Source: Candidatus Fraserbacteria bacterium (GTDB taxonomy: Bacteria; Bipolaricaulota; Bipolaricaulia; RBG-16-55-9; DRXL01). From it: a stretch of 64,000 nucleotides of DNA. Numbering within the stretch: the first letter of the stretch is position 1; every line of letters begins with the position of its first letter. Below, piece after piece: positions 17,244 to 38,001 of the stretch. Below the pieces are notes generated by a model. That model searched no databases and was not told the DNA's origin. It saw nothing but the letters and a program-made list of their open reading frames with translations. The DNA lies in NCBI GenBank assembly GCA_037440025.1, contig JBBIUX010000001.1:11700-75699 (forward strand), written 5' to 3'. The position numbers were made by a program, and so were the translations under genes.

Positions 17244-18047
17244 TTATAATTCTTGGTGGGCTTGCTCGACCAGTCGCGCCCAGTCTATGGGCACACCGTG
17301 AGACGGCTCGTTGCGAATGTGCATAAAAAACTCGATATTCCCTGCCGGGCCTTTGATCGGAGAGAACGTCGCGTTCACGACCGAGAGCTTTAATTGATCT
17401 TGTGCGAAGCGCATGAGGTCTTCTAAGACATGCTGATGGGTGACAGAGTCTTTGACCACGCCGCCGCGCTGGACGTGCTCTCTGCCCGCTTCAAATTGGG
17501 GCTTGACCAGACAGATCAGATCGCCCTTGGGCGTGACGATCTCTTTGAGCGGGGGCAAGATCAATTTCAGCGAGATGAACGAGACATCGACAGTCGCGAT
17601 ATCGACGGGTTCGCCGATCTGGTCGGGTGTGAGATACCGAGCGTTGATCTCTTCTAAGACCGTAACTCTAGGGTCGGTGCGCAGCTTCCAATCTAATTGT
17701 CCCTTGCCCACGTCTACGGCGTAAACTTTTCTGGCCCCGTGTTGCAGAAGGCAGTCGGTGAAGCCACCGGTCGAAGCGCCGACATCGAGACAGACTTTGT
17801 CCGTGATGTCTAAATGAAATGCGCGAAGCGCTTTTTCTAATTTGAGGCCGCCCTGGCCGACGTAGCGCTGCTGCTCTTTGACTGCGATGGGGGCATCAAT
17901 GGGGACTTGGGCGCCGGGTTTGTCTATGATCTGTCCGGCGACGGAGACTTGCCCGGCGAGGATAGCGCGTTGGGCTTCAGTGCGTGATCTAACAAGGCCG
18001 CGCTCTACCAGCAAGAGATCAAGACGTAATTTCTTAAATAAGAGCAC
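17244..18047 (-). CDS. tlyA: TlyA-family rRNA 2'-O-methyltransferase
   Basis: N-terminal S4-like RLDLLLVERGLVRSRTEAQRAI. FtsJ-type SAM motif CLDVGASTGGFTDCLL. Confidence 0.85.
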   Translation of the reverse strand: MLLFKKLRLDLLLVERGLVRSRTEAQRAILAGQVSVAGQIIDKPGAQVPIDAPIAVKEQQRYVGQGGLKLEKALRAFHLDITDKVCLDVGASTGGFTDCLLQHGARKVYAVDVGKGQLDWKLRTDPRVTVLEEINARYLTPDQIGEPVDIATVDVSFISLKLILPPLKEIVTPKGDLICLVKPQFEAGREHVQRGGVVKDSVTHQHVLEDLMRFAQDQLKLSVVNATFSPIKGPAGNIEFFMHIRNEPSHGVPIDWARLVEQAHQEL

Positions 18048-19248
18048 TTGTTGTCTTCGTATACGCCTGCAACCCCTCTCGCAAAATTCTCATTGCTTTT
18101 TTCAGCGCATCTGTGTTGAGCACATACGCAATTCTCACTTCGTCGCGGCCCTTGCCCGGTGTGGCGTAGAACTCTGCTGCAGGCGCAAGCATCACCGTTT
18201 CGTTTTCGAGAGCAAAATCCGTCAGCAACCAGCGAGCAAAGTGCTCGGCGTCTTCGACGGGGAGTCTGGCGATCACATAAAACGCTCCTTGGGGCTTGGG
18301 ACAGAGCACGCCCGGCATCTTCTGGAGCTCTGAGTAAACCAAATCTCGGCGCCGCGCGAACTCCGCGATCATCTCGCGCACGAACTTCTGATAGTGTGAA
18401 GATCGTAAGAGATGGACAAGGCCGGCTTGCTCCAGCGTCGGCGGGGAGAGCCGCGCCTGCGCGAACTTCAATGCTGACTCCATCACCGAAGCGTTCTTGC
18501 TCGCGATCACGCCCACTCGTGCTCCACAGGCCGAAAATCGCTTGGAAATGCTATCTACTAAAATCGCGCGATCTTCTATCCCTGACAATTGTAAGATGCT
18601 GATCGCCTGGGCGCCGTCGTAGGTGAACTCACGGTAGACTTCGTCGGAGATCAGATAGAGGTTGTGGGCGCGCGCGATCTCTGCAAGCATTTCTAGCTCA
18701 GCGCGGGTGTAGACGACGCCGGTGGGGTTGCCAGGATTGCAGAAGAGTATGGCTTTCGTCTTAGGGGTGATCTTCGCTTCTATATACTTTCTGTCTGGGA
18801 GCCGGAAGCCATCTTCAGCGCGCGTCTCAATGGGCACGATCTGAATCCCTGTGATCTGGGCGTAGGAGTTATAGTTAGTGTAGAACGGCTCAGGGACTAA
18901 GATAGCATCGCCGACGTCGGTGGCGGCGAGCAAGGCGAACGTGATCGCTTCGCTGCCCCCGGTGGTGACGATCAGCTCATCACGGCTCAGGTGGATGTCG
19001 AACGTGCGATAGTACTCGGAGAGCGCGTCGAGCGTCTCATCCAGCCCCTGCGAGGGGCTGTAGGCTAAGACGCCTTGAGCAGCTTGACGAATGCCGTCAA
19101 AATACTCTTTCGGTGTTGGGATGTCGGGTTGGCCGATATTTACGTGATAGACTTTCTTTCCGGCGTGTTTGGCTTGATCGGCTAAGGGTTTGAGTTTGCG
19201 GATGGGCGAGGCCTGGACGATCCGCGCTCGCCAACTGATGGACGGCAT
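18034..19248 (-). CDS. class I/II PLP-dependent aminotransferase
   Basis: ASPIRKL..NIGQPD..NPGNPTG..SISKRFSACGARVG (PLP lysine). Start moved to ATG 19246-19248 behind AAAGGAGGAC; the longer ORF would overlap tRNA-Ser. Confidence 0.85.
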   Translation of the reverse strand: MPSISWRARIVQASPIRKLKPLADQAKHAGKKVYHVNIGQPDIPTPKEYFDGIRQAAQGVLAYSPSQGLDETLDALSEYYRTFDIHLSRDELIVTTGGSEAITFALLAATDVGDAILVPEPFYTNYNSYAQITGIQIVPIETRAEDGFRLPDRKYIEAKITPKTKAILFCNPGNPTGVVYTRAELEMLAEIARAHNLYLISDEVYREFTYDGAQAISILQLSGIEDRAILVDSISKRFSACGARVGVIASKNASVMESALKFAQARLSPPTLEQAGLVHLLRSSHYQKFVREMIAEFARRRDLVYSELQKMPGVLCPKPQGAFYVIARLPVEDAEHFARWLLTDFALENETVMLAPAAEFYATPGKGRDEVRIAYVLNTDALKKAMRILREGLQAYTKTTSALI

Positions 19249-19454
19249 GAGTCCTCCTTTTGAAGTCGGCTCGGGCCGGCCCGCTCCAGAAACAGCGCCC
19301 GCAGGGACCGTCTTACCGTTGCTCCCTTCCGGGCCTGGCGGGGTTCGTCGGCCTGCGCCGCCGCTCCACAGCGAGCCGACCCCAGCCAGACTTCGTCTGG
19401 ACTGTTCGCCGTGCCGCCAAAGGCGGCACGATGAACGGTGCAGGCGAAGCCTGC

Positions 19455-19544
19455 TGGCGGAGAGGGTGGGATTCGAACCCACGACCGACTTTCGCCGGTA
19501 CGTGCTCTCCAGGCACGCCCCTTAGTCCACTCGGACACCTCTCC
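19455..19544 (-). tRNA. tRNA-Ser (anticodon GGA), CCA encoded
   Basis: Minus strand GGAGAGGTGTCCGAGTGG..CGTGC-CTGGAGA-GCACG..long variable arm..GTGGGTTCGAATCCCAC-CCTCTCC-G-CCA. Folded by eye. Confidence 0.9.
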
Positions 19545-21589: not shown

Positions 21590-21590
21590 C

Positions 21591-21828: not shown

Positions 21829-21849
21829 CTGATCTCTTCAAGAGATCAG
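21829..21849 (-). terminator. perfect 10-bp-stem hairpin overlapping the DUF499 stop codon
   Basis: CTGATCTCTT-C-AAGAGATCAG. No clear U-tract, so terminator function is uncertain. Confidence 0.35.
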
Positions 21850-24536
21850 TCTTCGAAGGTGTGAGAGACGCCGTAATCGCTGAGCAGCTTCTCCAGTTCT
21901 TGTTTGAGTGTCGGCGGAATTCCGTCGGTCTCGATGACGAGTTGTACTCGGCCGGAGAGCTGCTTGAGCTGTTCCGCAGCCTTGAGGATGGGATAGAGCA
22001 TCTGGGTGTGGGTTGAGATCGTCAGGCGCTTGGGCAGGGGCGAGCCCGCTTCAGTCTTTGGTGGCAACGACTGACTAGGCGTCGTTGGAGCTTCTCCCTC
22101 AGCTACGACTGTCCCAAGATGCTCTGGGCGGGCGATCCACTGAGCTGCTTTCTCCGGTCGGATGAGCCAACCTGTGTCAAGATCTATCAGCCCTGTGCTG
22201 AGCTCTTCGTTGAACGTCACGTTCTCCAAGGGATCGCTGTGGCTCTTGCGCGTAGCGTAGCCGAATGTTCCGGCCTTCACGCCCTGAGCGACGGCGCTTC
22301 TCAGAACACCCTCATCAGCAAGCAAGGGCAACCCGGGTGTGCTGAGAAACGCTTGGTAGGCGGCCTTCAGTGCGACTTCTCCCTGCTCTTTGCCCCAGAC
22401 GAACTCTTTGATAAAGTCCGGCGCGAGCGCCTCGACCAAAAGCCCTTGATCTTTCAGAGCCTGCCAAGCCCGATCTGCCAATATGGCAGCAGCACTCAAA
22501 CTCTCTCGTGAGGTCAAACGCACTTCTTTGAGGCCCTCGCGAGTTGGGCGCACCAGTACGTTGTAGGCGCGCCGGAGCGCTTCTTGTAGCTCCTTTTGTG
22601 ACTGCTTGAAGCGCGCGTGCACGTCTGTTTGGTCCTCGTCATCGAGAGAGCGAAACTGCGCCGACGCTTTGAAAGCTTCGAGGGCTTTTTGCTTGCGGGC
22701 TTTGCTGCGCGCTGTGGCCAGCTCGCTCTGGTCAGCCAGGAGAAAGACCAGCTCGTTCTTGTGCACACGATAGCCTGAGCCACACGACTGCACGAATGAC
22801 TCCAGTTGCTTCTTGCCCTCTTCACTGGCGCTCCCTTGGGAGTGGACAATAACGAGCGTGGGCTCCGGGCGGTCTTCGATGTCACGGCTTTCCTTGGGCC
22901 ATAAAGACACGCGAAAATTCGCGCGACCGGCGATTGCACTGAGCGTTTCGCCAATGGTCTCTTCGATCCGCTCGTCGGTGACGCCGGCTTCGTAGTCTTG
23001 TAAAACTTTATTGAGATTGGGCCGGGACTCGAAGCGATAGCGCTGGTCTTTATAGACAAGATACCAGAGTCGGTCGCGCAGGCGATTGAGGGCTTCGGTG
23101 GCCAGTGCTGGGTTGAGGCCGGGGCGCAGCAAAGCCATATTAAGCTCTTCGGGTGAGGCCCCTCTATCTTGGGCAGCCGCCGAGATGCTGTAGAGAAAGA
23201 TGCTGCCGGCCAAGCCGCGCGCCAACTTCTCTCTATAATAATCGCCTCTCAACTCTTCATCTATAGCGCGGCCCTTCTCCAGAACATCGCTGGTGACGAC
23301 GGTATCGAACTCGCTCCCTAACAGTTTGACCACCTCGGAGCGCGTCGTGCGGTCGGCAAGGTCCCCATGACAGAGTTGAATGAGATAGGCAGAGCCAGGA
23401 CGCTCATGCCACAGCCGTCGGATCACTAGCGCCAAGAGTCTTAAGGCCCCGCGCGTCCGCTGAAACTGCGGATGCGGCCCCCAGCGCTGATAGAGCAAGT
23501 CAATCAGCTCAGGATGAAACGGGTAGGCTTGTTCCATGCGATTGCGATAGGCCAGCGTTCGCACGTCATCAGGGAAGGAGCGCGCATGGTCGTCGTAGTA
23601 GCTACGAAAAGCATCGGAGACGGCGCGAATCTCTTTGTTGGAGGGCAGGGTGCGAAAGAGTCGCTTCTGCAAGACCCCGAAGACCTCATCTTGCGCTACT
23701 GGGGTCTCGACCTTCTCGACGCGCCCGAAGATCTTTTTACTATAGTCGAATAATCTTTGGGCTTCTTCGGGCGTGCCCCCTGCAATTTCTAGCACGGAGG
23801 CGGGCAGCGAGACGACCAACACACAATTGGAGAGCCCTGAGGCAGCCACACTCAGCTCATGTAGAAAAGCCTGAGTCTGCTCTGAAAGATCACCTGTGCC
23901 TACGGGTACACCCTTCGCTTTGACCAGATACTGCAAGACCTCGTCCATCAAGATGAGGGCGGGGGCTGAAGCCCGTAATAGTTTCGTCAGTAGCTCGCTG
24001 CCAGGCGCGGTGCGGGCTTCATCGGCCTCACGCACCAGCTCATAGAGGGCTTTGCCGCCCAGCTTATAAGCCAATTCGCCCCAGAGCGTGCGCAGCTCTA
24101 AGCCGTCCACTTTACGGCCCTGTGGGCTGAGGGCTACGCCATCGAGAACCGCCACGGCGATGGGCTTGGAAGGCAAGGGCAACTCTCTCTTGAGAACCTC
24201 GCTCAGCAGCCTAGGCTGCCGTGCGGCGTGGTAGAGCGCCACGAGCGTGTGGGTCTTGCCGCCGCCGAAGGGTGTCTGCAGCTGCAAAACGGGCGCGCCC
24301 TTGTCTTTCTCGCCCGAGAGCCGCCCCAGCACGCCCTCTAAAAGATTCTCCAAGCTCTTCGTCATGAAAGTTTTCTCAAAGAAGCGTTCGGGCTCGGTGT
24401 AGTCTGAAGAAGCTTCGCCCGTTTCGACTTGATGGAGACTCGCGGCGAAGAGCGCCAGATTTAATTCTCCTGAAAAGACGTCGGGATGGGGCTCGCAGAG
24501 CTCCCAGACTCTGGGAATAGATTTCTTCTTGCCCAT
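21846..24536 (-). CDS. DUF499 (COG1483) AAA-type ATPase, defence-operon component
   Basis: 896 aa. N-terminus ..PHPDVFSGELNLALFAASLHQV..DYTEPERFFEKTFMT, Walker A TPFGGGKTHTLVALYH, Walker B LILMDEVLQY. Confidence 0.8.
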   Translation of the reverse strand: MGKKKSIPRVWELCEPHPDVFSGELNLALFAASLHQVETGEASSDYTEPERFFEKTFMTKSLENLLEGVLGRLSGEKDKGAPVLQLQTPFGGGKTHTLVALYHAARQPRLLSEVLKRELPLPSKPIAVAVLDGVALSPQGRKVDGLELRTLWGELAYKLGGKALYELVREADEARTAPGSELLTKLLRASAPALILMDEVLQYLVKAKGVPVGTGDLSEQTQAFLHELSVAASGLSNCVLVVSLPASVLEIAGGTPEEAQRLFDYSKKIFGRVEKVETPVAQDEVFGVLQKRLFRTLPSNKEIRAVSDAFRSYYDDHARSFPDDVRTLAYRNRMEQAYPFHPELIDLLYQRWGPHPQFQRTRGALRLLALVIRRLWHERPGSAYLIQLCHGDLADRTTRSEVVKLLGSEFDTVVTSDVLEKGRAIDEELRGDYYREKLARGLAGSIFLYSISAAAQDRGASPEELNMALLRPGLNPALATEALNRLRDRLWYLVYKDQRYRFESRPNLNKVLQDYEAGVTDERIEETIGETLSAIAGRANFRVSLWPKESRDIEDRPEPTLVIVHSQGSASEEGKKQLESFVQSCGSGYRVHKNELVFLLADQSELATARSKARKQKALEAFKASAQFRSLDDEDQTDVHARFKQSQKELQEALRRAYNVLVRPTREGLKEVRLTSRESLSAAAILADRAWQALKDQGLLVEALAPDFIKEFVWGKEQGEVALKAAYQAFLSTPGLPLLADEGVLRSAVAQGVKAGTFGYATRKSHSDPLENVTFNEELSTGLIDLDTGWLIRPEKAAQWIARPEHLGTVVAEGEAPTTPSQSLPPKTEAGSPLPKRLTISTHTQMLYPILKAAEQLKQLSGRVQLVIETDGIPPTLKQELEKLLSDYGVSHTFED

Positions 24537-24548
24537 GGCATACTCCCT

Positions 24549-24821
24549 TCAGTAGACATCGCCTCGTGACGAAATTACCTCGACAGAGACAACCTTCTTC
24601 TCCTGATCCACCTTGTACACCACGCGGAGTTTGCCTACCCGATAGCGCAACCTGCCCTTGAGTCTGCCCCAAAGCCGCTTGATGCCGTGATGCTCAAAGT
24701 CGAAAGGATCATGTTCCAAGGCTGCAAAGCATTCGTCGAGTCTCTGAGCTGTGCTCTTATCCACACGCTGGTAATAGTTTGCAGCATTCTTCGATAGCTC
24801 GACGCGATACTTAGCGTGCAT
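24549..24821 (-). CDS. relE: RelE/ParE-family toxin
   Basis: MHAKYRVELSKNA..LKGRLRYRVGKLRVVYKVDQEKKVVSVEVISSRGDVY. Start moved to ATG 24819-24821, giving an 11-nt overlap with the antitoxin. Confidence 0.75.
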   Translation of the reverse strand: MHAKYRVELSKNAANYYQRVDKSTAQRLDECFAALEHDPFDFEHHGIKRLWGRLKGRLRYRVGKLRVVYKVDQEKKVVSVEVISSRGDVY

Positions 24822-25032
24822 TGCTGCGCTTGATCTTCCGCCATGGGATAGTCTCACCGCGCTCGACCTCGGCCTTGCCTTTTTCCCAAGCTTTCATAAA
24901 AGTTTCATCTTCGAGGAGTTCTAGCGTTGCGCCCCACTCCTCCAAGCGCTCCATCAACATCAACAGATCGCGCACCATTTCGTTCGGCAGTTCGTCAATG
25001 ATTGCTTTAGCCCGCTCTTTGACCGTCATCAC
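24811..25032 (-). CDS. antitoxin (Phd/YefM- or RelB-like) partner of RelE
   Basis: 73 aa, acidic, ..ATLELLEDETFMKAWEKGKAEVERGETIPW. GTG/ATG start overlaps the methylase TGA. Confidence 0.6.
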   Translation of the reverse strand: MMTVKERAKAIIDELPNEMVRDLLMLMERLEEWGATLELLEDETFMKAWEKGKAEVERGETIPWRKIKRSNAR

Positions 25033-27782
25033 CGATCACCTTTCTCTTCAAACAACCCCTTCTGCCCGCGCGGGGTTTCGCGCAGCGACTCTCTTCTGAG
25101 CAGCCCCTCGCGCGCGGGCATCAACTGCTCCAACAGCTTACGCTCTTCGTCGCCCTCAGGCAAGACACTCACTAAAGCCTGCGCTGCCCGCCAGAAACGC
25201 TCCGCCTCTAATAATCCCTCTTCTGCTAAGAACTTCTGCAAATTCTCCAGATCGCCCTTCTCCCAGAGCACCAGCGCTTTGTGCAACCCATTGATGAGTA
25301 GGGGCACAGCGTGCTGTGCCTCTACAGGACCTTCTTGTCTTTCAAAAGATTTCGGATCGCGGTCGAGAGCCGCCAGCACTCGCACTTTGTCTTTGAGTTT
25401 CTTCGCTAAGCCCACGTGAGCCAGCGCATCCAGCTCAACTCCCAGCACCTGCGAGAGTTTTCGGGCATCATCGTAGGGCACCTCGTTGGCGTCGTAGGCC
25501 CAGCGGAAGAGCACATAGAAGCGCGTGGGCGCGTCCACTTGGCCGACGCCCTCGGTCTTTAAGATCATCTCCAGCGCGAAGTCGGCCACAAGCCGGCGCA
25601 CTTCATCTAAGAGTTCGCTCACGGTGATCGTCTCTCCCGACGGGTGTAAGACTTTGTCGTAGCGTCCGAAGATTTCTACGGCGGGGCCGATGGCGGACAC
25701 AAAGAAATCAGCGCCACTGATGCCGACTTCCCAAAATTTTTTCAGTCGGTCGCGCACGCGGGCTTCCAGTTGGGGCTTCAACTCGTGATACCAAGCCGTG
25801 GTTGATTTCGTGGGGCGTTTTCGGCACGCGAGCAGAATCGTCGAGACGATAGAACCCTTGCCACGGGTGTGGGTGCTGGCCTCCATTTCTGTGTGCACAG
25901 GCCAAGAGGCAGTTGGATAGAGTCCGGCGTTCAAGAGGCTCTGAATGAGACTTTCCCAAGCTGCTGTTGATTTATGCGTGAACATGATGACGGCAAGTCC
26001 CTCGTCTTTGAGCACGCGATGGATCTCTTGAAATGACTGGGTGAGCAAGCGTTCGTAGTGGCGGTGGGAGATGCATTTTGCGCAAGCGCAGTTGGGGTTG
26101 TCGTCTTGGTGTCGTTTGGACTTGGCCGCCGTAGCCCATCTTGCCGGGTTGTGAACGATCTCTTCGTCCTTGGGCGTCAGCTGAGTCTGAAACGCATCGG
26201 GGTAGAGATGGCCGACGGAGCGTTTGAGCCAGACGTAGAAGAAGTCTGAGAGATCGGCGTAGGGCACGTTGTCGTAGTAGGGCGGGTCGATGACGACGGC
26301 GTGTAAGCTGGAGTCTATGAAATTGCTGAGCGAAGCTGCTGAGCCGACCATGGCATTAGAGCAACTTCGCGTGCTGATTGCCTCACGAGAAACTGCAGCT
26401 TTTATCCAGTCAATGGCTCCTTCAAAGCCACCTGTGGAGATGCTGAAAGGATCAATTTCGGTGTAATCCCAAATCATGTGAAGATGATGTCCAGAAAAGG
26501 TGTTTCTGATTAGCTCTCGGCTCGTATGCCAGCTGCAAAGAATTGAGTTGTAGTCACCCAACCGATCAACCGCTAACCCCAAATACGTCGCCACGGCCTT
26601 GGCGTAGTCGTCGTTGCAGCACTCTTTTTTGATTTCTTCATGGGCTTCTCTCACCAATCTCGCAAAGGTCGCCAGCGCCAAGGCTTGACGGGGGTTGAAG
26701 TATTTGCCCCACTCCGTAAGCCCATACGTGGGACGCTGTGAGGCTCCTTGACCAATCGTGCCGGGGCTTGGCTCATCGGGAACCAGCGATAACTCGTCCT
26801 TGTGATTAGCTTTCAGCTCTTCGAGCCTTCTCGCTGCCTTCTTGAACGCCTCTATGTGCTTCGAGTTTGCGACTGCATACTGACGCCCGCTGCCACGGCC
26901 CGTGGTCTTCACGACGGCTACTAATCTATGGCCCATGCGCTCTGCCTGCGCTTCGCTTCGCAAATAATCATCATCTGCCGTCCCACCGCAGAGCAAGCAA
27001 TGGGCCGTGGCCCTTCTGACGGTTCCCTGCGACGGCCAGTCTTCGTTCGCGCCCACGGTCACGACTTCAAAATCCACTCGCTTATCGTAGTGATTCACGA
27101 TGGGCTTGAGCGCGATGCGCTTGTTGGGTTTCTTGGCGAGCCAGAACTGGCGAAAGAGCGGAATCTCTGCGCCGCACGCGGGATTGGGACAGCGCACCGT
27201 GCGCGACCAGATATATGCGATGGGCGTTGCGCCATCAGGCTCTTTGGGGTAGAATTCCGCAAGCTCCGCTCGCGCCCGCTCCAGCACCCATTTGCCCCAG
27301 CGCTCCACGTCTTCATGTAGGGGCGAACGGCCGTTCGCCCCTACACCATATCTCTGCGGGTACTCCAAGGTCGCTTTCAGAATGAGATACGCCACAGGGT
27401 TGTATTCGACGGCATATGCCTCGCAGCCCAATCTCAAAGCTTCAAGGGGAATAGAGCCGCCGCCCGCGAATGAATCTAAGACTTTGGGCGGCCCGTCGGG
27501 ATAATGCTGTCGCAAGAGTTTGCGGGCTTCTTCGATGAGCGATGGGTGCGCATCCCAGTTGCACAGATTGATGAGAAAGCGCTTCAAGCGCTCGCGCTCC
27601 TCCTCAGATTCCGGGGAGGGGAGCAGTGCTCCGAGCACCGCAGCGCGGGCCACAACCAGAGGGCGTCTGGCCCACCAGACGTGCAGCGTTGAGATGTGCC
27701 CGTGACGAATGGCCTTCTCGCGCTTGGCCTCTTTACTCAGCTCAGCCAAGGGCAAGAGGTCTTCGATGAGATAACGCTTCAT
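25029..27782 (-). CDS. DUF1156 (COG1743) Zn-ribbon N6-adenine DNA methyltransferase
   Basis: 917 aa. HISTLHVWWARRP, VLDSFAGGGSIPLEA (SAM motif I), CPNPACGAEIPL..CLLCGG, VVIDPPYYDNVPY (motif IV). Confidence 0.85.
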   Translation of the reverse strand: MKRYLIEDLLPLAELSKEAKREKAIRHGHISTLHVWWARRPLVVARAAVLGALLPSPESEEERERLKRFLINLCNWDAHPSLIEEARKLLRQHYPDGPPKVLDSFAGGGSIPLEALRLGCEAYAVEYNPVAYLILKATLEYPQRYGVGANGRSPLHEDVERWGKWVLERARAELAEFYPKEPDGATPIAYIWSRTVRCPNPACGAEIPLFRQFWLAKKPNKRIALKPIVNHYDKRVDFEVVTVGANEDWPSQGTVRRATAHCLLCGGTADDDYLRSEAQAERMGHRLVAVVKTTGRGSGRQYAVANSKHIEAFKKAARRLEELKANHKDELSLVPDEPSPGTIGQGASQRPTYGLTEWGKYFNPRQALALATFARLVREAHEEIKKECCNDDYAKAVATYLGLAVDRLGDYNSILCSWHTSRELIRNTFSGHHLHMIWDYTEIDPFSISTGGFEGAIDWIKAAVSREAISTRSCSNAMVGSAASLSNFIDSSLHAVVIDPPYYDNVPYADLSDFFYVWLKRSVGHLYPDAFQTQLTPKDEEIVHNPARWATAAKSKRHQDDNPNCACAKCISHRHYERLLTQSFQEIHRVLKDEGLAVIMFTHKSTAAWESLIQSLLNAGLYPTASWPVHTEMEASTHTRGKGSIVSTILLACRKRPTKSTTAWYHELKPQLEARVRDRLKKFWEVGISGADFFVSAIGPAVEIFGRYDKVLHPSGETITVSELLDEVRRLVADFALEMILKTEGVGQVDAPTRFYVLFRWAYDANEVPYDDARKLSQVLGVELDALAHVGLAKKLKDKVRVLAALDRDPKSFERQEGPVEAQHAVPLLINGLHKALVLWEKGDLENLQKFLAEEGLLEAERFWRAAQALVSVLPEGDEERKLLEQLMPAREGLLRRESLRETPRGQKGLFEEKGDR
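27316..27343. repeat. perfect 28-bp palindrome inside the methylase CDS
   Basis: GTAGGGGCGAACGG|CCGTTCGCCCCTAC, translated VGANGRSPL. Sister palindrome at 47407-47434. Confidence 0.85.
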
Positions 27783-28093
27783 GGCAAATCCAGCGCGAAC
27801 TTGATCGCGTCGTTGACCGATTGGATTTTGGCTGTGTTGAGAAACGTGATTCGTCTTTGTAGCCAGACTTTACGCACCGTGATCAGATTGTCGAGATTGA
27901 CAGCGCAGCGGCGAGGTAGGCCATCTGAAGGCCCGAGCTCCACCTCGGCTCGAATGCCACGAATGTGCGTCGAAACCGGCGCCACCGTCACCCACTGGCG
28001 GATGCGATACGCTTCGTTACGGGAGACCAACACCACAGGCCGACGCCCAATAGGAGCAGGCAAGTCAGCCCACCAGACTTCGCCACGCCTCAC
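27779..28093 (-). CDS. mazF: MazF/PemK-family toxin
   Basis: (V)RRGEVWWADLPAPIGRRPVVLVSRNEAY..VAPVST. GTG 28091-28093 overlaps the antitoxin TGA (GTGA). Its own TGA overlaps the methylase ATG (ATGA). Confidence 0.8.
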   Translation of the reverse strand: MRRGEVWWADLPAPIGRRPVVLVSRNEAYRIRQWVTVAPVSTHIRGIRAEVELGPSDGLPRRCAVNLDNLITVRKVWLQRRITFLNTAKIQSVNDAIKFALDLP

Positions 28094-28356
28094 TTCTCCT
28101 CCCACTCGATTTCGGCCAAGAGTTGGCGGGCTATTTGATCGACCCCCGCCATCTCTTCTTCCGTCTCGGGATACTTCCGATAGCCTTCGATGTAGCGACG
28201 GACGTCTTCCGCTTCCCGCTGCGCCTTCAGCCAATGACGGATCGCATCGGCAATCACCGCGCTTCGGGACTTCTTGAGCTGCCGACGAAACTTCTCTACG
28301 GCCCGAAACTCTTCTTTGGGTAGGCTTACTGCAATCTTCACTGTATGAGCTGCCAT
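28090..28356 (-). CDS. ribbon-helix-helix (CopG/MazE-like) antitoxin
   Basis: 88 aa. VKIAVSLPKEEFRAVEKFRRQLKKSRSAVIADAIRHWL RHH signature. Confidence 0.75.
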   Translation of the reverse strand: MAAHTVKIAVSLPKEEFRAVEKFRRQLKKSRSAVIADAIRHWLKAQREAEDVRRYIEGYRKYPETEEEMAGVDQIARQLLAEIEWEEK

Positions 28357-28423
28357 GATTCACCTCACAGTATGAACAAATGCATACTCAGTATAACTCT
28401 GGCGGACGGGCACTGTCAAACGC

Positions 28424-31400
28424 TTAGTTTTCAGACTCCACAGCCTTCTTCCAGTCGGCAAAGACCACTTTCACCGTGCGTAGGATCTCTTCGGGCGCAG
28501 GGAGTTTTTCAGCCGGGTTCTGAATCCGCGTAAGCTGCGGGCTCGTCAACGCATTCTCGACGGCATAGACCCAATATTTGTCTCCCAATCTTTGGGCCAT
28601 CTGCCATTCGTGCAGCGTAAGTTGCAGCTCACCCGTCGTCTGAAAACCCTTCACTTCGATGTGGCGTGTCTCATCGGGCCCTTGCGAAAGAATATCATAG
28701 CCGCGGAATTCTAACGAGACGTCTTGTGGGGTTCGCCCTTGAGCACGCTCGTAGCTCATCGCGACCGCCATAGCCGTTCGCTCGATTCGTTTCTTGAGTT
28801 CTTCATCAGCAAGTGCAGCCGCGGCTTGCTCGGTGAAAGTTCCCTTAGGCACGACGAGCGCCACGGCGATCAGCTCCGGCTCTAAGCGCACTAAAGCCAT
28901 CTCGCGCTCCAGTGCCTTCAAGCGCTCTGTCTTCTCGCGTACCAGCGCTTTGAGATGCTTCTCTTCTTCTTCGATGACCAGTCGCATGTCCTCGCCCGCG
29001 TCCAAACGCTTCTGATAGTCAAGCAATTTGCGATTCGATTCTGCCATCAAGGTGTTGAATGATCTTTCGAGATAGTCGCGCTTGATGCGGGTATCGCGCT
29101 CGCGGCGCGCTTTAGCTTCTTCGAAGACGCGATCTGTATAACGAGCGACCTCGCTTCTGATGGCCTCTTGGGCTTGCGTTAAGCCCTCGATAAAGTGTTG
29201 CGGGATGGTGGCATCTGGTTCAGCTCCCTCGAATTCCCACAGTACGCGGGGATCTACGGCGCGCACCTCGGCGCTTGCTGAGTCATAGAAGAACGTCAGC
29301 AGTTGTTCGCGGGCCGTCTGGTTTTCCCCATCGAGCACCTGAGCGCAATAGAACCAGAGTGAACCCGACCGCCCTTTGGGATCGAGCAAGAGCGTGCGCA
29401 GGGGCTTCTCTTTGCCTTGTAGAAAGTGCTCACAGAGAGCCTCAAAGAGCGGATGCCCCGGCGCCAAAAGCTCCGGTAGCGTCTCAGCTTCTTTAATCAC
29501 TTTGCGCTCGAAGGCGACCCTCAGCCCGCGCACGAGAGAGTCGGGCAAGTGAAATTTTTTAGCGAACTCCCGCGGCACGGCGACCTTCCAGACGCCCTTG
29601 TCTTTCTTATCGGCCTGCATCGTCCCGCCGATTAGTCCCAGGGCTTCTCTGGTGAAGCGCTCGACGTCCCAGGGGACTAAACGCATCTCCAGCGAGCGCG
29701 TGTCCTCTTGTAAGATCGCCATGTGATCAATGTGATGGCTGGCCAGCGCGCTCTCTTCTAAAGCTCTTCTATATTGCTGAAAAGCCTGCTCAAGATCGCG
29801 CGTGAAAGTGACCTCGACTTCTTGCGGACTGTCCTTGAGCACGGCCTGCATCACTAACTGTTCGAGCTTTACGCCCTCTAAGAGCGTCCCCACGACATCG
29901 TAGACGCTGTCGCCCAACTGTTGGCGCATCTCGTTGAGCTTTTCCAAGAGCGTGTCCAGAACCTGCCCCTCGCGAGTTTGGTGGTAGAGCATGTTATAGA
30001 CAAAGCAATCGCGCTTCTGCCCGTAGCGATGGATGCGCCCCATGCGCTGTTCCAATCTATTGGGGTTCCACGGCAGATCGTAGTTGACCATCAGGCGACA
30101 GAATTGCAAATTTAAGCCTTCCCCAGCAGCCTCGGTAGCCACCATCACTTGGACGTCTGGGGCGCGAAAGCGGCGCTCTTGCTCGATGCGTTCTGAGAGC
30201 GTCATCTCGCCGTGAATTGTGGCCGTCTCATAGCCCCACTCGCGGAAGCGTTTGATCAGCCCGTAGAGCGTGTCTTTGAACTCCGTGAAGACGAGCAGCT
30301 TTTCATCAGAGTCGTTCTTCAGATGTCTTTCGACGAGTCCGCGCAGCTGCTCGGTCTTGGCTTCTTGACTGACTCTTGCGGCTTGCTGAGCAAGCTGGAT
30401 GAGCCGATCGAGGTGGCGGATCTCATCGCGCAGCTCTTCAGGGCTTTCGGCAGCGGTCAGCCCCTCGCGCTGCTCTTCAAAACGCTCACGCTCTTGAGCC
30501 GTATAGTCTTCGGGTTCTTCGTCTGGGGCGTCTGTGGGGAGTTCGTATTCGGTGTCGCGCACGGCTTCCCAGCGGTCCAAGAGCGTAAGCAGCTTCGCTC
30601 GGCGGCGCTTGAGCGATTCGCCAATGGCCGTCAGGCTCGAAGCTAAACGCCGTTGGAGCACGACCAAGGCCAAGCCGATGTTGCGGCTGCGACGGTCTTT
30701 CGCTGCGGCGACGCGCCCGTACCATTTCTTCACATAAGCTGTGACGGCTTCATAGAGCTTCGCTTCTTCGGAGGAGAGAGCCACCTTGAGGCTGCTGACC
30801 TCGCGTTTCTTGAAGAGCGGGTTACCCAAAAGATCTTTCGCTTGTTCTTTAGAGCGTCGCAGCACGAAGGGGAGCTGTCCTTGCGCTCGAGAGGTTTCTA
30901 ATAAATGCCATTCGTCGGCGAAGAGGTAGGGCGCCAGCAGCTCGATCAGCTTAAAATACGCGAAGTGATCGCCCTTGTGAGGGGTGGCCGTCAAGAGCAA
31001 CAGATGCGTGGTCGCCCGCGCGAGCGCCGCGCCCAGCTCGTAGCGCTGCGTGCGCTTTTCTTCTCGACCGTACTTGGCTGCCGAGAGCTCATGAGCTTCG
31101 TCGAAGATGACCAAGTCCCAGCGTCGGCGGCTGAGCAGTTGGGGGTAGGGCTCGCGCTTGGCGAAGTCTAATGAAGTGATCAATTGCGGGTTGCGTTCGA
31201 GAAAGTCATCCGAGCGGAGTTGCTCGGCAAGCCCGCGATCTATCTGGGTGAACTCTTCGCGGAACCAATCGCGCATCTCGCGGCACCATTGGTCTTGCAG
31301 ATGGGCGGGGACGACAAGTAAGACGCGCCGCACAACGCCGCGTACTTTCAGTTCTTTCATAAGCAGTCCGGCCATGATCGTCTTGCCCAAGCCGGGATCG

Positions 31401-31804
31401 TCTGTGAGAAGAAAGCGCACCTTGGGCAAGGGCAAGATATGCTTATAGACCGCGTCCACCTGATGGGGCAGGAGATCTACTTGGGTGACGCTGACAGCAT
31501 AGTGAGGGTCGAACGTATAAGCCAAGCGCATACGAAGCGCTTCCGCGTAGAGCAAGAAGGGCTTCTGAGGTAGCAGATTTCCTTGAGCGAACTGTTCTCT
31601 CAAAGAAGGGATAACCTTCACCCGCTGGGACAACTCTTCAGGGCTTAGGTAGAACGTTTCTGCGCGTTTGCTCTGCTGAAAGATGAGGCCGAGCCGGATC
31701 TTTTCCCCCACAGGTTCGCAGAGGAAGACTTGAGCAGTCTCCTCGAAGGGGGCTAGCCGAACCAGATCGCCGTGACGGAGTAAGGGCTTGGCTTGGGGTG
31801 TCAT
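28424..31804 (-). CDS. SNF2-family helicase with C-terminal DUF3883 nuclease-like domain
   Basis: 1126 aa. LLTDDPGLGKT, FDEAHEL, LLLTATPHKGD, QRMGRIHRYGQ. C-terminus GYDILSQG..RHIEVKG..LTLHEWQMAQRLGDKYWVYAV. Confidence 0.85.
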   Translation of the reverse strand: MTPQAKPLLRHGDLVRLAPFEETAQVFLCEPVGEKIRLGLIFQQSKRAETFYLSPEELSQRVKVIPSLREQFAQGNLLPQKPFLLYAEALRMRLAYTFDPHYAVSVTQVDLLPHQVDAVYKHILPLPKVRFLLTDDPGLGKTIMAGLLMKELKVRGVVRRVLLVVPAHLQDQWCREMRDWFREEFTQIDRGLAEQLRSDDFLERNPQLITSLDFAKREPYPQLLSRRRWDLVIFDEAHELSAAKYGREEKRTQRYELGAALARATTHLLLLTATPHKGDHFAYFKLIELLAPYLFADEWHLLETSRAQGQLPFVLRRSKEQAKDLLGNPLFKKREVSSLKVALSSEEAKLYEAVTAYVKKWYGRVAAAKDRRSRNIGLALVVLQRRLASSLTAIGESLKRRRAKLLTLLDRWEAVRDTEYELPTDAPDEEPEDYTAQERERFEEQREGLTAAESPEELRDEIRHLDRLIQLAQQAARVSQEAKTEQLRGLVERHLKNDSDEKLLVFTEFKDTLYGLIKRFREWGYETATIHGEMTLSERIEQERRFRAPDVQVMVATEAAGEGLNLQFCRLMVNYDLPWNPNRLEQRMGRIHRYGQKRDCFVYNMLYHQTREGQVLDTLLEKLNEMRQQLGDSVYDVVGTLLEGVKLEQLVMQAVLKDSPQEVEVTFTRDLEQAFQQYRRALEESALASHHIDHMAILQEDTRSLEMRLVPWDVERFTREALGLIGGTMQADKKDKGVWKVAVPREFAKKFHLPDSLVRGLRVAFERKVIKEAETLPELLAPGHPLFEALCEHFLQGKEKPLRTLLLDPKGRSGSLWFYCAQVLDGENQTAREQLLTFFYDSASAEVRAVDPRVLWEFEGAEPDATIPQHFIEGLTQAQEAIRSEVARYTDRVFEEAKARRERDTRIKRDYLERSFNTLMAESNRKLLDYQKRLDAGEDMRLVIEEEEKHLKALVREKTERLKALEREMALVRLEPELIAVALVVPKGTFTEQAAAALADEELKKRIERTAMAVAMSYERAQGRTPQDVSLEFRGYDILSQGPDETRHIEVKGFQTTGELQLTLHEWQMAQRLGDKYWVYAVENALTSPQLTRIQNPAEKLPAPEEILRTVKVVFADWKKAVESEN

Positions 31805-31853
31805 GATCCCTCAAGGCTTGGCACTCTGCGCTAGAAACTTTCAACTATCTTGC

Positions 31854-31930: not shown

Positions 31931-31987
31931 GTGTGCACGGCTATTCTAACAGGCAAACAGAGGCTTGTCAACGGGCAAATCCCCCTC
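31865..31987. repeat. attL: 123-bp direct repeat (tRNA-Arg nt 1-66 plus 57 bp upstream)
   Basis: Identical by eye to 37879-38001. Confidence 0.9.
31943..31971 (-). promoter_or_regulatory. consensus sigma70 promoter of tRNA-Arg (lies inside the direct repeat)
   Basis: Minus strand TTGACA (31966-31971), 17 nt, TAGAAT (31943-31948), 12 nt before the mature 5' end. Identical copy at 37957-37985. Confidence 0.7.
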
Positions 31988-32065
31988 TACTCACCCTCGA
32001 CTCTCCAGAGGCCGTCTGAGCCATAAAAAGGGGGTAGGCCAGCGGTCTTTTTTCGGCCAACTTTT

Positions 32066-32995
32066 ATGGTCAGCGAGACAGTCAACCAGCGGACGTTCGG
32101 TCAGCTCTCGGCAGCGTTCGAGGGCTTTCAGTTGTATGCCAGAATCGAGGGACGGTCAGCGAAGACGTTGGAAGTCTATCGGGTGGCTTTCCAAGACGTG
32201 CTCAGTTTCCTTGGGGAGAGCATAGCCTTATCCGACGTGGCTGCAGGGGATATACGGCGCTGGATTGCCCATAAATTGGACGCTGGCTACTCCAAGACGA
32301 CTATCAATATCCGGCTGCGTGCTTTGCGCGCCTTTTTTAACTGGCTTGTCCGAGAAGGGTATATGACGGAGAGACCCTTAGCCAACGTCAAGCAACTGCG
32401 AACGCCAAGACAGTATCCTTACGTGCTCTCAGAGCAACAGGTCATGGCGCTGCTGAGGGTTATCAAGCGAGACTCTTGGACGGGCAAGCGCAACTGGGCA
32501 ATGGCGCTGACCATGCTCGACGCCATGCTCCGGCTCTCCGAGCTTATCCACCTAGAGCTTGCAGACGTGAACTTGCAAGCTCGCTCAATAAGAGTGCGTC
32601 ACGGCAAGGGGGATAAAGAGCGCGTGGTCTTTATGGGCCGCCGTCTCACAAGGGCCATGCACGACTGGCTTGCGGTGAGAGGCTATCACGTCGGGGAAGA
32701 TAGAGTCTTTGTCACCCGTCAAGGCACAAAGCTCGACAGCCGCAACGTGCAACGGATACTCGAACGGTATGCAGCCAAGGCGAAACTGACGGACGTGCGG
32801 GTCAGCCCGCACACATTGAGACACACCGGCGCGACGCTCTTTATCAGATACGGCGGCGACCCCTTTAGCCTGCAAAAGCTCTTAGGTCACAGCACTGTCA
32901 CCGTGACAGAGATTTATGTGCACATGGCGGGCACGGCTTTGAGGGAAGCGCACGCCAAGGCGAGCCCGGTGGATAGGCTGTTGGAGGGGAGCTAA
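32066..32995 (+). CDS. tyrosine recombinase/integrase (XerC/D-like)
   Basis: 309 aa. N-terminal SAM-like core-binding domain (LRALRAFFNWLVREGY). Catalytic ..MLRLSEL..GKGDKER..SPHTLRHTGAT..LLGHSTVTVTEIYVH. Confidence 0.9.
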   Translation: MVSETVNQRTFGQLSAAFEGFQLYARIEGRSAKTLEVYRVAFQDVLSFLGESIALSDVAAGDIRRWIAHKLDAGYSKTTINIRLRALRAFFNWLVREGYMTERPLANVKQLRTPRQYPYVLSEQQVMALLRVIKRDSWTGKRNWAMALTMLDAMLRLSELIHLELADVNLQARSIRVRHGKGDKERVVFMGRRLTRAMHDWLAVRGYHVGEDRVFVTRQGTKLDSRNVQRILERYAAKAKLTDVRVSPHTLRHTGATLFIRYGGDPFSLQKLLGHSTVTVTEIYVHMAGTALREAHAKASPVDRLLEGS

Positions 32996-33087: not shown

Positions 33088-33810
33088 GTGCGGATAGTAG
33101 CTATATCTTTAATAGGTATGTTTTGGGCTGGTCTGCTCATTAGCTGTACACCTCAGCAGCCCTCCAACCAGAGCCCTGTGGCTGCAATCGAAGCTTCTGT
33201 TACCAGCGGCGAGGCTCCACTCACGGTAGTTCTGAGCGGGGCACGCTCGTATGACCCGGATGGGACAATCACCCGATATGAATGGGATTTGGGCAACGGA
33301 GATAAGTCGAGCGGGGTTTCTGTCACGCACATTTATCAGCAATCGGCCACTTTCACAGTAGGCCTTAGCGTGACCGACGATAAAGGAGCTACAGCTTCAG
33401 CCACAATTTCAATCACAGTTGCGAAGGCTAGCTGTCCGCGTGATAGCACAAGCAATGGACAACTTCGACTTGCGGTACGGTCTATAAGCGTGGCGAGTGA
33501 ACTCGGGATTTGGCAGCCAAGTGAGGGCAACAGATTCTTAATTGTGGACGTGTCGATAGAATCTCTAGCGGACGACCAGCTAGCGAATGCGTTACTCTTC
33601 AAAATTGAAGAAGAAGACGGTACAGCGCACGATATCAGTATAGCAACTGCTTCTCTTCCTAAACCATTTGAGTCTGTCACATTAGACCGTGGACAAAAAA
33701 CTGGCGGACAGCTTGCTTTTGAAGTCGGCCTTTCGGTTCGCCAAGTGAAACTGCACTATAAACCTCTGCTGACCGGCCAGAAAATGAAGTTATGTCTTAG
33801 CGTGCCGTAA
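33088..33810 (+). CDS. lipoprotein with PKD domain and DUF4352-like Ig-fold domain
   Basis: Lipobox LLISC. PKD pattern PLTVVLSGARSYDPDGTITRYEWDLGNGD..VGLSVTDDKGA. C-terminus ..GNRFLIVDVSIESL.. Confidence 0.6.
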   Translation: MRIVAISLIGMFWAGLLISCTPQQPSNQSPVAAIEASVTSGEAPLTVVLSGARSYDPDGTITRYEWDLGNGDKSSGVSVTHIYQQSATFTVGLSVTDDKGATASATISITVAKASCPRDSTSNGQLRLAVRSISVASELGIWQPSEGNRFLIVDVSIESLADDQLANALLFKIEEEDGTAHDISIATASLPKPFESVTLDRGQKTGGQLAFEVGLSVRQVKLHYKPLLTGQKMKLCLSVP

Positions 33811-34662: not shown

Positions 34663-34717
34663 TTCGGCGGGATTGGCGACCCTCCGACACCGTTGCAGCT
34701 ATCTTATCCCAGATTTG

Positions 34718-34842: not shown

Positions 34843-35754
34843 TCAAGTGTCCCGCTTACTAGTTGAGAGAGACATTGAAGACGTTGACGTGGCTATTGAC
34901 GCAAGACGTGAGACTGTTGACTTTGAAACTCCAGCAAGTCGCGCAATTTCGCGCCGAGAGAGCTTTGAATTTGCGAGTGCGACGCGCAGAACTTTGGAGA
35001 TTTTGTCTTCCGCGTCGCGTCGTTTCGCAGCTTCTTTTCGCGCAATACACTCGAAAGTGTAGTGAAGCTGCTTTTCAGAAAGCGGCGGGCGGTTTTGTAA
35101 GTTCCAGCCGCGCAAGAGCCGCCAGACAACCGTCTCCCAGTCGGATTGGTTAAAAGCACCGAGTAGCTTGCCCGCCATTTGAGCGGCGCTGACGTTGCGG
35201 TAGCCTTCGGGAACGCCGCGAACAATATCAGCAACGGTATCAGCTTTAGGACGGGCGCGGTGTCGCTTCAGCATTTCAAACAGCCAAGCTGGGCAGGGCG
35301 CGGGTTCGGCTTCGGTCGGTGGAATCACCCACTCGTAGACCTTGCCGGACGGGTGTATTGACGGCGGGGCGACGACGTAGCCGCCTTCACCACGCACGTC
35401 GAGACCGTCAGCAAGACTGGTCACACTGCGAATTGTCGCGTTCTGAAGCGAGAAATAGTAATGCTGCCCTCTTGCTGTCTCACAGAACGGCGTGACGGGC
35501 ACGCCCTTACCAAGCCGTTTTAGTGCCTCTTGCGCGTCGCAGTCAAGCACAAGCAAGTTGCTGATTTTCCCGCAGACGACGGCTATGTTTGCGTCCGCTT
35601 CTCTCTCAAAAAGCGTGACGATTTCGTCTTCGGTTAGCTTGCGCCGTTGAAACTCTTTCCAGCTGCGCGCCGGGGCCTTCGAGCAACGCGGGAGTGGAAA
35701 GACGTTGCAATTTAGCGTCTTGTGCAGTTCCAGCGCGGCTTCTAAAGCACTCAC
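34843..35754 (-). CDS. bifunctional DNA primase/polymerase (prim-pol N-terminal domain) protein
   Basis: 303 aa. ..NVFPLPRCSKAP..W..NIAVVCGKISNLLVLDCD..YYF..GLDVRGEGGYVVAPPSIHPSG pattern. C-terminal HTH (REIARLAGVSKSTVSRL). Confidence 0.75.
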   Translation of the reverse strand: MSALEAALELHKTLNCNVFPLPRCSKAPARSWKEFQRRKLTEDEIVTLFEREADANIAVVCGKISNLLVLDCDAQEALKRLGKGVPVTPFCETARGQHYYFSLQNATIRSVTSLADGLDVRGEGGYVVAPPSIHPSGKVYEWVIPPTEAEPAPCPAWLFEMLKRHRARPKADTVADIVRGVPEGYRNVSAAQMAGKLLGAFNQSDWETVVWRLLRGWNLQNRPPLSEKQLHYTFECIARKEAAKRRDAEDKISKVLRVALANSKLSRREIARLAGVSKSTVSRLASIATSTSSMSLSTSKRDT

Positions 35755-37438: not shown

Positions 37439-37878
37439 GCTCAATCACTCACAATCCTGAGCCGTCGCACGCGCCGCAAATCTTCAACACTCACGCCGAG
37501 CTTCTTTGCTAGTTGGCGGGCCTTCTCTTCGGCCAGCACGGGTTTGACGCCGATATAGGCGACGTATTCTTGCCGTTGCGCTCTAGCTTCTTTATCCCAG
37601 ACGTTGCGCTTGAGCACGTGGTATTTTGCGTTCCGTCCTGCTTTGGCGAGAAATAAACTTATAACGTTCTCAGTATAGCACCGGTAACGGATAAAATCAA
37701 GTCTCGAAAAGGTGACGAATTTCCCCGTCTTCCCCGGCCCCTTGATTTGACGCCAGCGGGGGGTGGGCTACAATTTTGCTTACTGTCAAAAACAGATAGG
37801 CCAGCGGTCTTTGGCATGTCAGGCAGAAGAGCTAAACGAGGGGAAAAACCTGTTGGCAAGAGGGTTATCGCGCTTGCT

Positions 37879-38001
37879 GGAGGACTTGAACCTCCGACCT
37901 CTGGCTCCGCAGGCCAGCGCTCTGATCCCCTGAGCTACGGGCGCGTGTGCACGGCTATTCTAACAGGCAAACAGAGGCTTGTCAACGGGCAAATCCCCCT
38001 C
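37879..38001. repeat. attR: 123-bp direct repeat containing a 3'-truncated pseudo-tRNA-Arg (37879-37944, minus) and its promoter copy (37957-37985)
   Basis: Identical to 31865-31987. Lacks the last 11 nt (3' acceptor strand, discriminator, CCA); the sequence continues as AGCAAGCGCG on the minus strand. Confidence 0.9.

Follow-up and report, generated by a model that had tools for sequence, protein, structure and literature searches.

Organization of the locus

A 64,000-nucleotide stretch of DNA from a Candidatus Fraserbacteria bacterium (contig JBBIUX010000001.1; this whole stretch is the window) contains three large minus-strand open reading frames (ORFs) encoding a Swi2/Snf2 helicase, a DUF1156 methylase and a DUF499 ATPase. 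Together these form an intact Hma (Helicase, Methylase, ATPase) system, also called a Type-1 DUF499-centred BREX-related (BR) system; the locus is a new copy of a known family and not a new kind of defence. The original prediction, made from the letters and translations of the window, had placed a methylation-linked defence-type operon at 21829-31853, a span that brackets exactly these three genes.

The order of the operon is tRNA-Arg, hmaA, [RHH antitoxin, mazF], hmaB, [antitoxin, relE/parE-like toxin], hmaC, where the bracketed genes are toxin-antitoxin (TA) pairs and RHH denotes ribbon-helix-helix (Table 1). All three core genes are on the minus strand in one copy each, with two embedded genes per junction. 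For comparison, PADLOC defines Hma as three genes on one strand, one of each, with no more than about three embedded genes per junction (10.1101/2024.01.29.577857).

The genes are packed as in a single operon. The stop codon of the RHH gene overlaps the GTG start of mazF (28093), the mazF stop overlaps the hmaB ATG, and the hmaB stop overlaps the GTG start of the 73-aa antitoxin candidate gene; a 12-nt gap separates the end of the RelE-like toxin gene from the hmaC ATG. Two sigma-70-like sites are oriented correctly for the operon, one in each of its only two genuine spacers. The downstream site may, judging from its match to the consensus, drive mazEF together with hmaB. A 194-aa ORF that was mechanically listed at 27779..28363 is an over-extension of MazF, as the PemK match begins at its residue 92 and a GTG lies at 28093. 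The GC content of the operon (0.569-0.581) is not distinct from that of the flanks (0.576-0.581), and an exact-sequence look-up of HmaB found no record.

Table 1. Features of the Hma operon and of the adjacent integrated element, in window coordinates (AF2, AlphaFold2 model)
Feature	Position	Strand	Evidence
Sigma-70-like promoter, TTGACA-17-TAGAAT, 11/12, TG extension; upstream of tRNA-Arg and hmaA, inside 123-nt repeat	31943..31971	-	Consensus match only
tRNA-Arg(GCG), intact, 49 nt upstream of hmaA start codon	31854..31930	-	ARAGORN; Rfam tRNA 68.2 bits
hmaA, RapA-like Swi2/Snf2 helicase with C-terminal PD-(D/E)XK (NOV_C/DUF3883) nuclease, 1126 aa	28424..31804	-	PADLOC, Pfam, AF2, Foldseek
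hmaA N-terminal five-stranded beta-barrel, Tudor/SH3-like, residues 14-65	31610..31765	-	AF2 model; fold assignment inferred
hmaA Snf2 motor, residues 110-640: Walker A GLGKT 138-142, DEAH 235-238, motif VI QRMGRIHR 586-593	29885..31477	-	Pfam, motifs
hmaA NOV_C nuclease domain, residues 1007-1094, with D1037, E1050, K1052, E1066	28523..28786	-	Pfam NOV_C 1.1e-19
Sigma-70-like promoter, TTGACA-18-TATACT, 11/12; in 67-nt hmaA-mazE spacer	28390..28419	-	Consensus match only
RHH (CopG-type) antitoxin, 88 aa, MazE position	28090..28356	-	Pfam RHH_1 3.2e-06
MazF/PemK toxin, 104 aa	27779..28093	-	Pfam PemK_toxin 6.5e-15 (profile 1-107/109), PHROG MazF-like 2.2e-11
hmaB, DUF1156 amino-methyltransferase, 917 aa	25029..27782	-	PADLOC, Pfam, motifs
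Antitoxin candidate, 73 aa	24811..25032	-	Antitoxin role inferred from position
RelE/ParE-superfamily toxin, 90 aa from ATG (102 aa from upstream GTG at 24857)	24549..24821	-	Pfam ParE_toxin 2.3e-08, PHROG RelE-like toxin 8e-16
hmaC, DUF499 BrxC-like AAA+/STAND ATPase, 896 aa	21846..24536	-	PADLOC, Pfam, AF2, Foldseek
XerC/D-like tyrosine integrase in 6,014-bp element	32066..32995	+	
PKD/DUF4352 protein in 6,014-bp element	33088..33810	+	
Prim-Pol in 6,014-bp element	34843..35754	-	

The three core proteins

Profile hidden Markov model (HMM) searches match all three proteins to the PADLOC Hma models over nearly their full lengths, with E-values (1e-135 to 1e-183) that rule out a chance match. 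HmaA matches PDLC00659 (1.9e-183; residues 81-1080 on profile positions 75-1128 of 1176), HmaB matches PDLC00661 (5e-135) and PDLC00660 (2.8e-133; residues 3-807), and HmaC matches PDLC00662 (1.8e-147; residues 12-811). Profile searches did not place the proteins in families other than Hma. The PADLOC match agrees with the defence-type assignment of the original prediction, whose three same-strand ORFs of 1126, 917 and 896 aa were likewise borne out; Pfam profiles concur with its SNF2/DUF3883, DUF1156 and DUF499 domain calls, and all the helicase, methylase and ATPase motifs that it quoted are located in the translations.

HmaA joins a Snf2 motor to a C-terminal nuclease domain. Its Pfam matches are SNF2-rel_dom (2.2e-16), Helicase_C (3.9e-27) and NOV_C, the current Pfam name of DUF3883, with an additional match to ResIII. 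The helicase motifs are DDPGLGKT (135-142), DEAH (235-238), LLLTATP (269-275) and QRMGRIHRYGQ (586-596), and the C-terminal block consists of GYDILS (1035-1040), IEVKG (1049-1053) and YWVYAV (1077-1082). Across 57 homologues with 40-81% identity, the residues G138, G140, K141 and T142, the D235/E236/H238 set, and Q586, R587, G589, R590 and R593 are invariant, as are the nuclease residues D1037, E1050, K1052 and E1066. These last four appear to correspond to the Halomonas catalytic residues D1084/E1104/K1106/E1121, a match made by motif pattern and order, without aligning the Halomonas sequence.

The AF2 model of HmaA (predicted local distance difference test, pLDDT, 85.8; predicted template modelling score, pTM, 0.77) contains the strands of the N-terminal barrel at residues 14-17, 23-32, 35-42, 48-53 and 62-65, with pLDDT ~86-91, and an alpha/beta domain at residues 977-1115. 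Its best PDB matches by Foldseek are to E. coli RapA (~1090 columns, E 4.7e-34), which is also matched by sequence. More than 4,550 HmaA-like proteins share the same Pfam architecture at E<=1e-20.

HmaB matches DUF1156 (1.1e-22) and, just below the 26.7-bit cut-off, N6_N4_Mtase (1.1e-05, 25.9 bits). It carries the DUF1156 hallmark HISTLHVWWARRP (29-41), DSFAGGGSIP (103-112) and DPPYYD (499-504). Motif I (FAGGG, 105-109) and motif IV (DPPY, 499-502) are parted by an insert that holds a Cys4 ribbon (198-265), and the ribbon residues C198, C203, C262 and C265 are invariant. The order of motif I, target-recognition domain (TRD) and motif IV is that of alpha-class amino-methyltransferases. A motif scan of HmaB found neither the PCQ nor the ENV motif of 5-methylcytosine (m5C) methylases. 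Because the motif order is of the amino-methyltransferase type and the m5C motifs are absent, the m5C methylase label (Payne 2021) does not apply to HmaB and is rejected here.

HmaC matches DUF499 (8.3e-41) and contains FGGGKTHTL at 90-98 (Walker A GGGKT, 91-95) and LILMDEV at 194-200 (Walker B LILMDE, 194-199). Since Walker A lies at 90-98 and the PADLOC match starts at residue 12, this is the canonical form of the protein without an N-terminal HEPN domain. The best PDB matches of the HmaC model (pLDDT 88.9, pTM 0.70) are Acinetobacter BREX BrxC structures (9zll/9zn5/9zdx; Foldseek E 1e-7 to 1e-6), which provides independent support for the relationship between HmaC and BrxC. Sequence searches of the PDB detected no solved relative for either HmaB or HmaC. 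HmaC-like proteins number more than 3,600 homologues.

The three core ORFs are full length against their homologues and every catalytic motif is intact. On the strength of these conserved catalytic residues, the window copy of Hma looks functional.

Relationship to known defence systems

Hma was proposed by Payne 2021 as a three-gene candidate system, with 1,638 occurrences in 26 phyla (PMC8565338). The window locus has the same three proteins in the same order on the same strand, and in both cases foreign genes lie between the hma genes. The cargo differs: two classical type II TA pairs occupy the window junctions, whereas the published cargo consists of Septu, PARIS, Ppl, GmrSD-like or ABC-ATPase cassettes. 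The window locus also differs in abutting a tRNA-Arg gene, an adjacency absent from the 11 other loci compared.

The triad has since been renamed DUF499-centred BR systems by Rakesh & Krishnan 2026, with all three proteins homologous to BrxC, PglXI and BrxHII of type-3 BREX (PMC12839542). In that scheme, Type-1 carries a C-terminal helicase restriction endonuclease, Type-2 an N-terminal HKD nuclease and a DUF3780 gene, and Type-3 PglZ and iSTAND (PMC12839542). The window locus shares with Type-1 a DUF499 ATPase, a DUF1156 N6-methyltransferase and a Swi2/Snf2 helicase whose C-terminal PD-(D/E)XK nuclease is predicted to be active. The insert of the methylase likewise holds one Zn ribbon, and HKD, DUF3780, PglZ and iSTAND are likewise absent; the N-terminal barrel in the helicase model may correspond to the Tudor-like domain of Type-1. 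HmaC of the window differs in its lack of the N-terminal HEPN domain carried by 1370/2446 taxa (PMC12839542).

Other classifications were considered and rejected. Type-2 BR is excluded by the absence of a phospholipase D (PLD) domain in Pfam searches and of a DUF3780 gene from the operon; the NCBIfam model phospholipD_antiphage scored 156.8 against a cut-off of 1100, and DUF1156_antiphage and DUF499_antiphage were also far below their cut-offs. Type-3 BR and BREX are rejected in view of PglZ and BrxB, neither of which was found among the operon proteins or flanking ORFs; PADLOC and Pfam searches of the same proteins did not find BrxA or BrxL either. Class 1 DISARM resembles the locus in having a methylase and an SNF2 helicase, DrmD, whose PADLOC model matches HmaA at 3.2e-129. 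The NCBIfam DrmD score of 360.6 is, however, below the cut-off of 610, and DrmA, DrmB (DUF1998) and DrmC (PLD) are absent. Type I and type III restriction-modification systems follow a like logic, in which a methylase works with an ATP-driven translocase that has a PD-(D/E)XK nuclease as its fusion partner. The window locus lacks HsdS, HsdM, HsdR, Mod and Res and has an extra BrxC-like ATPase, and any protection by methylation is putative; with its defining genes absent, classification as type I restriction-modification is rejected.

Kinship with type-3 BREX is a separate matter from membership. Homology between the two systems extends to the ATPase, the methylase and the RapA-like helicase, and the BrxHII model matches HmaA at 3e-123 and the PglXI model matches HmaB at 3.7e-10. 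The differences are that the window locus is without PglZ, BrxA and BrxB/F, that its helicase carries a restriction-type nuclease predicted to be active, and that its methylase has a DUF1156 N-terminus.

These comparisons leave the original prediction broadly right on function and incomplete on both the BREX relationship and the restriction-type nuclease. Its list of missing genes (PglZ, DrmA/B, PLD, HsdR/S) is accurate for the operon proteins and flanking ORFs. Its statement that the locus does not fit BREX stands for membership, as there is no PglZ, and fails for kinship, as all three proteins are homologous to BrxHII, PglXI and BrxC. The description of the system as having no classical restriction nuclease is misleading, because NOV_C/DUF3883 is a PD-(D/E)XK domain, which is the classical restriction-enzyme fold, and acts as a nickase in a homologue. 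Finally, the novelty implied by the original prediction does not survive, since the triad already has a name and catalogue entries, has been tested in part and has also been treated comparatively (PMC8565338, PMC11232893, PMC12839542).

Toxin-antitoxin cassettes and the junctions of related loci

The TA pairs mentioned in the original prediction are two type II cassettes, one per junction: RHH-MazF between hmaA and hmaB, and the 73-aa antitoxin candidate with its RelE/ParE-like toxin between hmaB and hmaC. The 73-aa protein has no family match in domain-library searches (Pfam, NCBIfam). A PADLOC scan of the four TA proteins returned no match, so these are not catalogued HEC ('Hma-embedded candidate') or PDC candidates.

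The junctions were compared across 12 loci from genome and metagenome contigs encoding homologues, and with published statistics. The closest complete relative, L006 (HmaA 81%, HmaB 75% and HmaC 76% identity), is a compact hmaA-hmaB-hmaC triad with gaps of 43 nt and 2 nt and no inserts. As this relative, at 81% HmaA identity, is free of inserts, the TA cassettes count as variable accessories and do not belong to the core.

Two degraded relatives, L005 and L007, have the antitoxin/RelE-like pair at the same junction as the window. L005 (positions 1-1900 of Candidatus Fraserbacteria metagenome-assembled genome contig JBBIPG010000066.1) is decayed, with a C-terminal remnant of hmaB and scattered hmaC fragments. 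Its TA pair is preserved, with 97% identity to the window for the antitoxin and 83% for the RelE/ParE-like toxin, which looks like persistence of the TA module after loss of the host system. L007 (10001-13021; JGI 3300010938, Ga0137716_10003279) is a deletion chimera, in which HmaA 1-968 is fused in frame to HmaB 796-917. A single 3.6-kb deletion, equivalent to window 28902..25301, took the nuclease domain and the catalytic part of the methylase together, leaving hmaC and the TA pair intact (antitoxin candidate 83% identical). The co-loss of nuclease and methylase fits a restriction-modification-like dependency, as a single anecdote.

The hmaA-hmaB-hmaC triad occurs with other inserts in L001, L004 and L009-L012. 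L009 and L010 carry Schlafen/AlbA_2 plus HATPase_c_4, and L011 carries an AbiEii gene preceded by an unannotated gene of 75 aa; a PIN pair is the cargo of L008. In L004, a NACHT ATPase lies between hmaA and hmaB, and HmaC is an N-terminally extended protein of 1103 aa (9530-12841); a profile search of this extension gave no significant HEPN match. An MNT-HEPN toxin-antitoxin pair is present in the hmaB-hmaC junction of L001 (9222-9985) and L002 (3670-4184), with a degenerate HEPN in L002. Thus at least two relatives have an RNase-type toxin module in the junction where the window has its RelE-like pair. Compared with Type-1 BR systems in general, the window presents a RelE-like TA pair at this junction, where L001 and L002 have MNT-HEPN and L004 has the extended HmaC.

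Embedding as such is well documented. Embedded genes occur in 62.7% of 1,485 Hma systems, and 96.7% of these are co-oriented (10.1101/2024.01.29.577857); Liu 2024 gives 66.5% for Hma loci with embedded genes (PMC11232893). MazF and ParE are not named as Hma cargo in the main texts of the Hma embedding literature searched, and the cassettes are therefore at most a new cargo type. In this sense, the known embedding phenomenon gains two cargo types from the TA-filled junctions of the window.

It is doubtful that the cassettes are more than passengers and serve the Hma operon as built-in regulators or backup abortive effectors. For such a role, a strong promoter-like site comes with the mazEF pair directly ahead of hmaB, so that autoregulation by the TA pair could set how much methylase and ATPase is made. 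Translational coupling also ties the RelE-like pair to hmaB and hmaC, between which it fills the slot that is taken by MNT-HEPN in L001 and L002; in many Type-1 BR systems a HEPN RNase is reported as a fusion to HmaC at the position of this slot (PMC12839542), and L004 has its extended HmaC there. If the cassettes did serve the operon in this way, the hmaB-hmaC slot would be a conserved position for an 'RNase backup', fillable by interchangeable toxin families.

Flanking region and the neighbouring integrated element

The genes on either side of the operon are housekeeping genes, among them genes for PFOR-type oxidoreductases, CoaE, TlyA-like FtsJ, an aminotransferase, HDAC, AAT, phosphoglucomutase and PPDK, along with copper-resistance genes. 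Domain searches of the flanking ORFs revealed no defence island around the operon, as is general for Hma (Payne 2024; 10.1101/2024.01.29.577857). A direct repeat of the tRNA-Arg 3' end, which would mark an island boundary, was searched for downstream of hmaC and was not found. An Rfam scan of 20-40 kb returned tRNAs only.

A 6,014-bp integrated element (31988-37878) lies upstream of hmaA, between the two copies of a perfect direct repeat of 123 nt (31865-31987 and 37879-38001). Each copy comprises the promoter-like region of the tRNA and the 5' 66 nt of tRNA-Arg; it is unusual for the repeat to hold this part of the tRNA gene and not its 3' end. In the distal copy of the tRNA (37869..37944) the acceptor stem is broken, and the score is 45.7 bits, against 68.2 for the intact gene.

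Just past the element, an NYN-domain protein (38243..38944, minus strand) matches PADLOC HEC-09 at E 2.3e-12. Before insertion of the element, the NYN gene would have adjoined tRNA-Arg and hmaA upstream, as a possible accessory gene next to the Hma operon and not inside it. A tRNA-Val(GAC)/tRNA-Cys(GCA) pair follows just past the NYN gene at 39190-39348 (minus strand).

Downstream of hmaC, a 62-aa ORF (21591-21779, minus strand) starts 67 nt past the hmaC stop codon and resembles a GNAT acetyltransferase N-terminus by eye, with no Pfam or NCBIfam match. This ORF overlaps the start of a 412-aa ORF (20435-21673, minus strand), whose AAT (acyl-CoA:6-APA acyltransferase) domain starts as late as residue 173; the two may be a frameshifted or mis-started fusion gene. 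Further along, tRNA-Ser(GGA) (19455-19544, minus strand) runs into the 5' end annotated for the aminotransferase ORF (18034..19482), an overlap suggesting that the aminotransferase really starts further downstream.

Mechanism and alternatives

Taking the locus, its relatives and the published work as a whole, the best explanation, to which we assign a probability of roughly 0.8, is an intact Hma/Type-1 BR system with a mark-sense-cut mechanism and passenger TA modules. HmaB, an amino-methyltransferase of the alpha type that has DPPY and a target-recognition insert with a Zn ribbon, would methylate adenine in a host motif. HmaC, in which winged-helix and C-terminal variable domains accompany a BrxC-like ATPase, would sense invading or unmodified DNA and license HmaA. 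HmaA, as a RapA-like translocase, would then move along the DNA and nick or cut it. The MazF and RelE-like modules would be independent passengers, transcribed along with the host system and serving either for addiction or as a second line of defence that acts abortively. The proposed mechanism agrees with the 2026 model (PMC12839542).

The experimental basis for an effector role of the helicase-nuclease, as the original prediction had supposed, comes from a homologue. In Liu 2024, Halomonas meridiana hmaA alone protects E. coli against T4 (~100-fold), and not against T5, T7 or EEP (PMC11232893). This protection is abolished by the motif VI substitution R610A (PMC11232893). The Halomonas NOV_C domain is a PD-(D/E)XK nuclease in which D1084/E1104/K1106/E1121 are required for nicking and defence, and the isolated domain nicks supercoiled plasmid with Mn2+ (PMC11232893).

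Several points weigh against the mark-sense-cut mechanism. Within the locus itself, the C-terminal 65 residues of the HmaC model are confident and include two helices, and DSSP assigns no strands there, so that an RRM/ferredoxin-like domain is not resolved as strands. The part given to HmaC is wholly putative, as is methylation by HmaB proteins in general. Marking of self by N6-methyladenine (m6A), which the original prediction had put forward, is likewise a putative role: in the sole published test, T4 grown on an HmaB-overexpressing host was unchanged in its sensitivity (PMC11232893). Halomonas HmaA is protective by itself and non-toxic without HmaB in E. coli, and hmaB is missing from 14.7%, and hmaC from 19.3%, of hmaA loci (PMC11232893). 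The anti-phage function of the window locus would also be taken from that homologue, Halomonas HmaA acting against T4 (PMC11232893).

The same results (~100-fold protection by hmaA alone, the lack of toxicity without hmaB, T4 unaffected by prior exposure to HmaB, and the incomplete hmaA loci) favour a different view, in which HmaA is a stand-alone effector. It would sense a phage DNA structure or replication intermediate and nick it independently of methylation, in the manner of abortive infection, with HmaB and HmaC as dispensable modulators or proteins with another function. T4 DNA is glucosyl-hydroxymethylated. Because it is hypermodified, T4 is a poor test of adenine-methylation dependence, and the exposure experiment counts for less than it might. 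The wide and tight co-conservation of the triad, in 1,638 and 1,485 PADLOC systems and in all complete loci compared here, also argues against a stand-alone HmaA, as do the translational coupling of the genes in the window and the joint loss of nuclease and methylase in L007. Overall, this alternative is possible, with the odds against it.

Less probable still is a BREX-like block, in which methylation marks self and a complex of HmaC and HmaA stops phage replication without DNA degradation, the nuclease being auxiliary. BrxC is the best structural match of HmaC, and the BrxHII and PglXI matches of HmaA and HmaB, like the homology of all three proteins to type-3 BREX argued in PMC12839542, are consistent with it. 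PglZ, BrxA, BrxB and BrxL are, however, absent, and the nuclease residues are invariant across homologues and needed for defence in Halomonas (PMC11232893), which makes the block improbable.

HmaB might instead be an RNA methyltransferase acting on tRNA or rRNA, in which case the system would not be epigenetic at the DNA level. Weak Pfam matches to Cons_hypoth95, an RsmD-like family, and the sub-threshold N6_N4_Mtase match lean in this direction. Against them stand DPPY and FxGxG, the large Zn-ribbon insert at the TRD position and C-terminal helix-turn-helix-like domains, all typical of DNA amino-methyltransferases; PADLOC type II methyltransferase models also match HmaB at 1e-66 to 1e-70, and the protein is homologous to BREX PglXI. 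An RNA substrate is accordingly very unlikely.

That the locus is a decaying remnant, retained only because its two TA cassettes hinder loss, is barely credible when the core ORFs of the window are full length with all catalytic motifs intact, even though two close relatives are degraded and yet retain the antitoxin/RelE-like pair (L005 with fragmented hmaB and hmaC, L007 as an HmaA::HmaB chimera).

Implications

The system already has a name, PADLOC HMMs, an experimental paper and a 2026 comparative treatment, and the locus matters little as a discovery. It is of value as a clean example of an intact system, from a lineage that appears to be uncultivated. The biology of the family is only partly solved, with the methylation motif of HmaB and the role of HmaC still putative. 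Here, the window locus, the insert-free L006 and the chimera L007 could guide experiments on the mutual dependence of the three proteins.

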